The notes beneath the pieces were generated by a model. It was not told where the DNA came from and did not search any database. It worked only from the letters and a program-made list of their open reading frames with translations. The position numbers and the translations under genes are program-made. Of a DNA stretch of 64,000 bases, positions 32,161-32,726 are shown in pieces; position 1 is the first letter of the stretch, and each line of letters opens with the position of its first letter. The DNA comes from Chlamydiia bacterium (GTDB lineage: Bacteria; Chlamydiota; Chlamydiia; Chlamydiales; Rhabdochlamydiaceae): positions 128,001 to 192,000 of the forward strand of contig CAWDOQ010000010.1 of assembly GCA_963804085.1 (NCBI GenBank), written 5' to 3'.

Positions 32161-32214
32161 TTCGAAACCCCGTGCCTTGCCTCTGCCTGTGCCTGTGCCC
32201 GCCCCTTCCTGATT
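32161..32214 (+). repeat. left inverted arm of four-helix-bundle cassette
   Basis: TTCGAAACCCC-(5 hexamers of GTGCCT type)-GCCCCTTCCTGATT. Confidence 0.9.
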
Positions 32215-32293
32215 CAGCTTCGATGAAAATTAATTTTTTGATACCCTTCTGTGTCCTTAGAATCGAGGTGTTTATAATCTGGGGGTTGGAAAA

Positions 32294-32674
32294 ATGATGG
32301 AAACATTGGTGAAGGGACAAAACAGCATCCTGGATCACGAGAAGCTGGATGCGTATCACATCGCCATAGAATTTGTGATATTATCCGATGCAATCATAGA
32401 GCATTTACCACGCGGTAGAGGTTACTTAAGCGATCAGCTACAGCGTGCCGCATTATCAATATCTTTAAATGTGGCTGAGGGTGCTGGTGAATATGCGATC
32501 GATGAAAAGGTGCGATTTTACCGCATGGCTAAGAGATCTGCGACAGAGTGCGCTGGTATTTTGGATGTTTGCCGGAAACTGCAACTGTTGGATGAGCAAA
32601 GATATGTAAGTGGCCGAGAGCTGTTGGTGCGGATAGTATCGATTCTCACTAAAATGGCCCAAAGAACTAACTAA
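32294..32674 (+). CDS. four helix bundle protein (23S rRNA IVP-like family)
   Basis: HEKLDAY, LSDQLQRAALSISLNVAEG, RFYRMAKRSATEC. Confidence 0.92.
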   Translation: MMETLVKGQNSILDHEKLDAYHIAIEFVILSDAIIEHLPRGRGYLSDQLQRAALSISLNVAEGAGEYAIDEKVRFYRMAKRSATECAGILDVCRKLQLLDEQRYVSGRELLVRIVSILTKMAQRTN

Positions 32675-32726
32675 TCAGGAAGGGCGGGCACAGGCACAGG
32701 CAGAGGCACAGGCAAGGGGTTTCGAA
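32673..32726 (-). repeat. right inverted arm of four-helix-bundle cassette
   Basis: AATCAGGAAGGGC-(5 hexamers of AGGCAC type)-GGGGTTTCGAA, reverse complement of left arm. Confidence 0.9.

Follow-up and report, generated by a model that had tools for sequence, protein, structure and literature searches.

A probable transposase-deleted IS5-family derivative with hexamer-repeat arms and a four-helix-bundle gene between mnmE and nth of a Chlamydiia bacterium

Introduction

We know of no function for the proteins of the four-helix-bundle family PF05635, which is very numerous (at least 2613 matches at an E value of 1e-5 or better among the candidates of our query alone). In the full-text literature the family is mentioned in work on DGRs, whose Avd protein has what we take to be a related four-helix-bundle fold and forms pentamers. 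Our full-text search returned no literature tying the family to insertion sequences (ISs). The family is best known from the intervening sequences (IVSs) of 23S rRNA in Leptospira and Coxiella burnetii, which carry an S23p ORF. A passage of a 2016 paper (PMC4990558) calls the origin of these IVSs unclear and cites two earlier proposals, that of Burgin (1990), in which the IVS is a relic of transposition, and that of Ralph and McClelland (1993), in which it is itself mobile and uses its ORF to move. A further kind of element, that of the mobile insertion cassettes and MITEs, has lost the transposase of an autonomous IS and may hold a passenger gene between the inverted ends derived from it.

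Here we describe a unit of 584 bp (positions 32152-32735) in a window of 64,000 nt, the whole stretch of DNA analysed, from the genome of a Chlamydiia bacterium. A preliminary description had presented its core as an IVS-like cassette, that is, a four-helix-bundle gene looped out by a long stem, and had suggested an excisable or mobile unit or an RNA-binding regulator that recognizes its own repeats. In our view, which is based on sequence comparison, the unit is very probably a non-autonomous, transposase-deleted derivative of an IS5-family IS, of the mobile-insertion-cassette type, in which the hexamer arms and the protein would make up one functional module.

Results and discussion

Organization of the mnmE-nth locus

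The features of the locus are listed below in order of position.

30778..32151, + strand: mnmE (tRNA modification GTPase), the upstream host gene (ORF call; Pfam TrmE_N, MMR_HSR1 and MnmE_helical)
32152..32168, + strand: decayed left IS tip, with 12 of 17 positions as in the full-element tip TAGACTTCTTTCGAAAC
32161..32214, + strand: left arm, which takes in the inner portion of the tip, then GTGCCY hexamers at about 32172-32205, then a conserved inner segment with CCTGATT at its end
32215..32262, + strand: remnant of the spacer that separates the left arm from transposase ORF1 in full elements, i.e. the leader of the lost transposase (alignments A1 and A3 to full elements)
32263..32293, + strand: deletion junction (about 32262-32270) and then a relic of the last 25 nt or so of the DDE ORF (alignments A1 and A4)
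32294..32674, + strand: intact four-helix-bundle gene, PF05635/TIGR02436 (ORF call and profile scores)
32673..32726, + strand: right arm, the mirror of the left arm, overlapping the cargo stop codon TAA at 32672-32674 (repeat search and direct reading)
32719..32735, + strand: decayed right IS tip, with 12 of 17 matches, inside which the nth start codon now lies
32732..33370, + strand: nth (endonuclease III), the downstream host gene (Pfam HhH-GPD and HHH)

The TAA of mnmE (32149-32151, from direct reading of the sequence) stands immediately 5' of the element, with 9 nt between it and the left arm, and the ATG of nth (32732) follows 5 nt past the right arm. The mnmE-nth interval is 580 nt and all three genes are on the + strand. 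The preliminary description was correct in placing a single four-helix-bundle ORF between co-oriented mnmE and nth, in describing near-perfect inverted hexamer arms on either side of it and in reporting no transposase: ORF and Pfam searches found none in or beside the unit, within which the PF05635 gene is the sole ORF of family rank. This ORF encodes 126 residues, or 125 from a second ATG at 32297, and an invariant TTTATAAT lies just 5' of its start, inside the relic of the DDE ORF. The unit sits between mnmE and nth and not in a 23S rRNA helix, and no Rfam match reached the gathering score at six loci of the same genome (L001-L006) or at 20 related loci.

An imperfect direct repeat, AAAGAATG / AAAGATG, adjoins the ends of the window element and overlaps the decayed tips. 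The full elements described below have TA on both sides, which can be read either as a target-site duplication or as part of the tip, and a clean target-site duplication could be demonstrated neither at the window copy nor at the full elements.

The junction in related genomes

We located nth in 30 of the 31 genomes compared, the orthologues in 29 relatives being 57-76% identical, and mnmE adjoins it in 25 of these 29 relatives. In 21 of the 25 the two genes are separated by 17 nt at most or overlap, often as ATGA, while the remaining four have gaps of 52-154 nt with different short palindromes. None of the 25 has a PF05635 gene between mnmE and nth. Given such tight spacing of the two genes in 21 of the 25, the unit of 584 bp must have been inserted. 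The idea of a mobile unit in the preliminary description gains from this empty junction, as well as from the IS ends identified here. Short, low-depth contigs from four soil DNA runs also touch the locus. One, which has a GGCACA unit more than the window copy, covers the 3' end of the gene, the right arm and nth; a second runs from the left arm into the four-helix-bundle gene; two others part from the sequence of the window, one at 32150 and one at 32160. None of the low-depth contigs of these four runs had a joint across the element, which would show an empty-site allele.

PF05635 scores above its cut-off in six of the 31 genomes, this one included. In four other genera of the bacterial family the gene again lies inside GTGCCC-type arms; a pseudogene and a weak match among the relatives are without arms of this type. 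The hexamer pattern occurs in all six gene-bearing genomes and in five of the 25 gene-less ones, counts that are not independent because the genomes are kin. The preliminary description had proposed to test the flanks of other homologues for inverted tandem repeats, and arms of this sort do flank other homologues, both here and in relatives. Of the outcomes that it had named as telling against it, such as the gene kept at this junction without arms or homologues lacking such flanks, none was encountered.

Full-length elements and their transposase

Homologous loci were collected from two sources: 12 from species genomes, which are titled as Chlamydiales MAGs except for one titled Legionella and two titled uncultured bacterium, and 47 from metagenomes. 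The twelfth genome locus (L064), with a match of 16 residues only, was left out of the counts, which thus refer to 58 loci. Neither mnmE nor nth is present at any of the 58, nor at L064, and the flanking genes vary among the loci examined. With respect to the transposase and the hexamer arrays the 58 loci divide as follows.

Both transposase halves upstream on the same strand: 26 of 58 loci; arrays on both sides in 16, on one side in 6, on neither in 4
Partial transposase relic: 12 of 58 loci; arrays on both sides in 5, on one side in 5, on neither in 2
No transposase upstream: 20 of 58 loci; arrays on both sides in 7, on one side in 6, on neither in 7

At the 16 full loci with arrays on both sides, the arrays enclose the transposase together with the gene. 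Several loci without both arrays are cut by contig ends, and among the ten full loci of this kind five (L071, L081, L085, L107 and L111) have less than 60 nt after the gene. The complete element is about 1.45 kb long, measuring 1443-1460 bp from tip to tip in L066, L067, L068, L073 and L080, and in these five a 17-nt tip lies outside the arrays at both ends. Its order is a 17-nt tip, a spacer of about 7 nt, about five GTGCCY hexamers, a conserved inner segment, an HTH_Tnp_4 ORF, a DDE_Tnp_4 ORF, the four-helix-bundle gene, the mirror arm and the second tip. In 12 of 14 contigs examined, inverted repeats link the left part of the contig to its end, with 73 of 73 nt in L067 and 72 of 72 nt in L068. 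Elements of a second subtype end in the variant tip TAGACCTCTTGCATAAC, and their arms resemble those of two cassettes elsewhere in the Chlamydiia genome, on contigs C7 and C19. The full-length elements are known from short metagenome contigs alone.

The two transposase ORFs are co-oriented and match PF13613 (HTH_Tnp_4) and either PF13359 (DDE_Tnp_4) or PF01609 (DDE_Tnp_1). Together they match the two halves of NF033581, the IS5 family transposase, covering positions 2-134 and 130-284 of 285, and an A-run separates them (alignment A2). A related transposase (60-88% identity) occurs in 41 of 300 sampled genomes of the phylum. Of 30 transposase loci fetched, 29 have neither gene nor arrays, and one has both beside a decayed transposase. 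Plain IS copies of this sort (L112, L113 and L118) are 916-949 bp long and have 17-nt inverted tips of the same TAGACTTCTTTCGAAAC type, no hexamers and no gene.

In the transposase tree, five plain copies fall within a starred clade together with seven gene-bearing elements, an arrangement that needs three changes of state. Repeated joint gain or loss of gene and arms was considered as an explanation and set aside, because a tree that groups every gene-bearing element in one clade is not rejected in an AU test (p = 0.18). The co-occurrence of gene and arms may accordingly rest on few events. Two other candidates were also discarded. The first was a second IS family as carrier, suggested by an ORF pair in L105 that looks like IS630 by eye; this element splits the four-helix-bundle gene, which marks it as a later insertion. 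The other was an IS nested within a cassette. Possible inner relics of tips amount to one at 4 mismatches (L067) and one at 3 (L078) in about 54 kb; given 77 tip matches at 4 mismatches or fewer in the 2.1 Mb of the bacterium's own genome, both may be fortuitous.

The window copy as a deletion derivative

Alignment of the window unit with the full elements extends over the left arm and the leader of ORF1, breaks off, and resumes about 25 nt before the DDE stop codon, from where it continues through the gene to the right arm. What is missing in comparison with the full elements is about 870 nt that include both transposase ORFs, and the junction, near 32262-32270, coincides with a short TTAT repeat. 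Judged from these alignments, the unit has no transposase because its interior was deleted. Each end of the unit still matches the tip at 12 of 17 positions.

The unit has several of the marks of a non-autonomous IS, namely ends homologous to those of an autonomous IS, no internal transposase and an empty site in relatives; a cognate transposase in the same genome is the mark that it lacks. An encoded DDE transposase, which defines autonomy in the IS5 family, is missing from the window and present in the full-length relatives. Searches of the assembly (2.13 Mb in 24 contigs, 47.9% G+C, 91% complete) by tblastn with both transposase halves and with PF13613 and PF13359 recovered no cognate transposase. 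IS copies are often left unassembled in genome assemblies. Two PF01609 copies in the genome belong to another IS and have no arrays nearby.

The unit would have come to its present place through DDE transposition, using the transposase of a full-length copy, and both of its own transposase ORFs have gone in a single internal deletion. It is presumably immobile now, since the tips have degenerated and the searches of the genome recovered no cognate transposase. Of the excisable or mobile unit envisaged in the preliminary description, the mobile origin is supported by the empty junctions; RNA excision or circularisation as the route is not, since complete IS copies with transposase plus gene exist and movement is best explained by DNA transposition. 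Nor did the free-standing IVS-type stem survive comparison, the arms being the terminal and subterminal inverted repeats of an IS5-family element whose full copies are found in metagenomes.

Sequence and pairing of the arms

Within each 54-nt arm an inner segment of the TTCGAAAC type is followed by about five GTGCCY hexamers and then by a stretch that has CCTGATT at its end. In a repeat search the pairing falls into three stretches, of which those of 27 nt and 12 nt are 100% complementary and that of 17 nt is 94% complementary; by direct reading the two arms differ by one substitution and two one-base indels that compensate each other. The hexamer pattern matches seven times in the window, where 0.41 matches are expected, and none of 100 shuffles reached seven. 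Folding of 32150-32735 as RNA, a check proposed in the preliminary description, predicted a very stable structure (-234.9 kcal/mol, as against -172.1 +/- 7.5 kcal/mol for shuffled sequences; z = -8.4).

The arms are conserved between elements. Compared with 13 related elements, the left arm matches at 30-53 of 54 letters, and the right arm matches the right arms of related elements at 39-53 of 54. Four-fold degenerate sites of the adjacent gene are 43-62% identical, compared with 30-53 of 54 letters for the arms. Because arm letters have been kept while these sites diverged, the sequence of the arms itself is constrained. At the same time, an arm resembles its partner in the same element more closely than it resembles the arms of other elements. 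In a set of 14 elements, the same change is present in both arms at 71 positions and there are 112 changes on one side, the latter figure including flank columns. A variable spacer is identical in both arms of each element; the window copy is without it on both sides, leaving a gap of 7 nt. Such paired changes, together with the matching spacers, indicate that the arms pair or that one converts the other.

The hexamer repeat family across the genome

Arrays of at least three hexamer units number 130 in the genome, compared with 15 in the reversed sequence. The reversed genome was used as control because the reversed GTGCCC pattern would be unfair, being the same repeat in another phase. There are 41 convergent pairs of arrays, of which 36 have loops of 15-51 nt and four have much larger ones, of 275-485 nt. 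Twelve of the 36 short-loop pairs share the loop GATCCGGATTAATTC, in one orientation or the other, and a PF05635 gene lies within three of the four large-loop pairs. One gene-less hairpin of the short type is in the window.

29094..29155, no strand assigned: gene-less hexamer hairpin of the hexamer family of the arms, with loop GATCCGGATTAATTC, upstream of ruvC

At a looser threshold 91 sites are found, at which GTGCCY is followed by RGGCAC in 63, the reverse order occurs in none and one is mixed. The midpoints of 25 of the 91 sites fall in stop-free frames of at least 150 residues, though such frames make up 88% of the genome.

All four canonical PF05635 genes of the genome are enclosed by arms. 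Those on C7 and C19 are near-identical copies of one locus, and the fourth (C10, at about 17.6 kb) has arms of a GCGCCC-type variant. Two weaker PF05635 paralogues are flanked by hairpins of different repeat units. On reading the flanks we recognized no IS tips around the three other canonical cassettes, and most of the roughly 90 hexamer hairpin sites of the genome are likewise without recognizable tips; among tip-like matches, one of 11 of type A and two of 18 of type B adjoin an array. The tip-less cassettes and the scarcity of tips next to arrays suggest that the hairpin module may outlive the IS or spread independently.

The four-helix-bundle protein

The window protein scores 69.6 bits against PF05635 (cut-off 33.8), over profile positions 1-105 of 106, and 66.4 bits against TIGR02436 (cut-off 24), and thus belongs to the family. 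Its closest homologues, at 84-90% identity, are on metagenome contigs, where they form part of complete elements of about 1.45 kb. The best 120 homologue clusters are 58-100% identical to it, all but one at 74% or more, and come from contigs mostly shorter than 2 kb. In the protein tree, from which the row G013 (an ORF of 47 residues) was disregarded, the window protein nests in a starred clade (support 96/91), whose 19 rows are 14 full elements, four partial elements and the window copy itself.

Comparison with the IS-borne homologues gives dN/dS values of 0.03-0.10 in 17 pairs with dS of 0.93-3.1; 14 further pairs were saturated. The four-helix-bundle gene is under strong purifying selection. 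The closest relative of known structure is XCC0516 of Xanthomonas (PDB entry 2gsc, chain A; E = 2.1e-7), an S23p protein that is described in a passage of PMC4990558 as a pentamer of four-helix bundles. With a pI of 6.8 the window protein is near neutral and not basic, so nucleic-acid binding gains no support from its charge.

Hexamer arms and protein would form one functional module: they are present or absent together among close IS relatives, both are under purifying selection, and the arms stay complementary while differing between elements. The protein probably acts on its own repeat arms, an assignment that their co-occurrence favours. It would act on them as DNA, as a folded single strand or as RNA, and might thereby regulate or aid transposition, for example, or keep read-through transcription in check.

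Alternative explanations

The observations in the genome at large could also be taken to mean that hairpin and gene are a self-contained module of the rRNA-IVS type, with its own way of spreading, which an IS5-type element captured; the window unit would then never have had a transposase. The arms accompany the gene and not the transposase. Other canonical PF05635 genes, here and in four related genera, have hexamer arms, no tips could be read beside the three other copies in this genome, few tip-like matches adjoin an array, and the two weaker paralogues sit inside hairpins built of other repeat units. What makes us consider this origin highly improbable is the window copy itself, with tip remnants of 12 of 17 positions at both ends, pieces of the transposase leader and of the 3' end of the DDE ORF placed exactly as in a full element, and a protein that nests among IS-borne copies. 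The full elements, moreover, have the transposase inside the arms and the tips outside them, a layout that simple nested insertion would not yield; inner relics of tips are no commoner than chance, and partial forms such as L053 and L074 point towards deletion intermediates.

Two further readings concern what the arms do. They might act mainly as RNA, in that a read-through mnmE-nth transcript would fold into a stem of about 54 bp and RNase III would cut it, freeing the mRNA of the gene and separating the host messages. A very stable predicted stem, complementarity kept through two-sided changes and a passage of PMC4990558, in which RNase III excises the ORF-bearing Coxiella IVS at such a stem, all speak for this, as does the fixed order of GTGCCY before RGGCAC (63 sites, none reversed), given that both strands present an equivalent stem. 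Conservation of the arms extends to their sequence and not just to their pairing, however, and their outer parts are transposon tips common to plain IS copies that have no long stem. As the main function of the arms, an RNA-level role therefore seems unlikely to us; it is compatible with a transposase-deleted IS as an added role rather than as an alternative origin. Alternatively, the hexamer arms would be extended binding sites of the transposase, and the gene an unrelated passenger kept for some benefit to the host. Subterminal repeats that bind transposase are known in other transposons, and the gene is intact and conserved in genomes in which no transposase was found. Against this stand the transposases of 60-88% identity that manage with 17-nt tips alone in the plain copies, the joint presence or absence of arms and gene at 30 of 30 transposase loci, and the persistence of arms around the gene after loss of the transposase, and we rate it as very unlikely.

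Implications

This lineage has intact ISs that carry the gene as a constant third gene and whose own ends are the hairpin arms, and successive deletion forms lead from them down to the bare hairpin-plus-gene cassette of the window. We consider this to be of moderate interest, in that an orphan family, best known from 23S rRNA IVSs, gains one concrete and ordinary mechanism of mobility and a role that can be tested at the bench, that of an accessory factor acting on repeat-built transposon ends.

A broader proposal may be put forward tentatively, although we regard it as somewhat doubtful. Arms and protein would be a portable accessory module of transposons, in which the protein recognizes the folded or duplex arms of its own element and either controls transposition or makes insertions harmless to host transcription. 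The ORF-bearing 23S rRNA IVSs and the many hairpin-wrapped PF05635 genes of other phyla would be immobilized, transposase-less descendants of such transposons, which are of the IS5 type here. If this were true, descent from such transposons would answer the question of where IVSs come from and what their ORF is for, which has been open since 1990.

Comparison with known systems

The window unit resembles mobile insertion cassettes and MITEs in having inverted ends that come from an autonomous IS, no transposase and one passenger gene, and in lying between host genes; the lineage resembles them in its deletion series, from full through partial to no transposase. It differs from them in that its ends are unusually long (54-73 nt), are built of tandem hexamers and form nearly perfectly complementary arms, in that the autonomous element has the passenger too, as its third gene, and in that no autonomous partner was found in the same genome.

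The full-length relatives share with the two-ORF, frameshifted IS5 family (NF033581) the transposase halves, the A-run and the 17-nt tips, which they have in common with the plain copies. Unlike those plain copies they have an additional, conserved gene, and inside each tip they are longer by about 55 nt, made up of repeats.

With the ORF-bearing 23S rRNA IVSs the unit has in common a PF05635 gene and a stem that encloses it, the stem here being a predicted one. In contrast to the IVSs, the unit is outside the rRNA gene and its stem carries identifiable IS tips. As for DGR Avd, the window gene has no reverse transcriptase, template repeat or variable repeat beside it, its neighbours being mnmE and nth, and the near-neutral charge of its product is a further point to be set against Avd. 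The unit is an unusual version of a known type of element, the mobile insertion cassette, and what is unusual about it is the combination of long hexamer ends with a conserved gene.

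Soil DNA contigs at the element

Two soil DNA contigs that match the 3' end of mnmE diverge from the window at positions 32150 and 32160, at the left edge of the element; both are weak (depth ~2). In one soil DNA contig the right arm has one GGCACA unit more than in the window, near position 32686; this too is weak at a depth of ~2.

Cassettes at other loci

Cassettes that carry a PF05635 four-helix-bundle gene are found at the following loci of the same genome (G000), a related locus (L105) and a genome of a related genus (G013).

G000:C7 ~5.3-8.6 kb and G000:C19 ~342-345 kb: one locus in near-identical copies (L002, L003)
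L105:1-1810: cassette that retains 24 codons of transposase ORF1 as a relic
G013:C6:275486-278797 (L015): cassette with hexamer arms

In both copies of the duplicate locus the cassette lies between the genes for tryptophanyl-tRNA synthetase and a Ser/Thr kinase. The cassette gene of the C19 copy carries single-base indels, and in the C7 copy the cassette ORF continues across the right arm, where it encodes Gly-Thr repeats. A segmental duplication may explain the near-identity of the two, as may strain heterogeneity (contamination 5%). In L105 the cassette gene is split by another element that inserted into it; the two ORFs of this second insertion resemble an IS630-type transposase, a family assignment made by eye alone. 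The L015 cassette is flanked by radA on one side and by the RNase III gene rnc on the other.

Divergent genes and fused proteins

Two divergent PF05635-like genes score 35-36 bits. The hairpins that flank them consist of a different repeat unit, based on ACGGAC or GTGGAC.

G000:C7:2075-2287: L005
G000:C19:346295-346501: L006, spanned by pairing arms (35 nt, 80%)

Two homologues of the window protein, P0120 and P0122, are fused proteins that combine HTH_Tnp_4 with PF05635 (210 aa) and DDE_Tnp_1 with PF05635 (380 aa), the latter sharing 53% identity with the window protein. These are additional links between the PF05635 family and transposases.

Hairpins and tips without a PF05635 gene

Hexamer arms also occur without the gene, and IS tips without hexamers.

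Window 29094-29155: gene-less hexamer hairpin, loop GATCCGGATTAATTC
G000:C8:30680-30996: hexamer arms around 275 nt of non-coding cargo
G000:C10:106564-106587, G000:C19:289456-289639 and G000:C2:91857-92042: hexamer-free IS tip pairs

The window hairpin has arms of unequal length, the left being the longer, and occupies the divergent spacer between the start of a minus-strand gene (~29032) and ruvC (29199). The 275-nt cargo contains internal palindromes of its own, and similar cargo ends are seen at G000:C16:22370 and G000:C19:331399; it could represent a further passenger or else a small RNA. One of the three tip pairs is a tip-to-tip palindrome and the tips of the other two are ~170 bp apart; these pairs look like ordinary MITEs derived from the plain IS.
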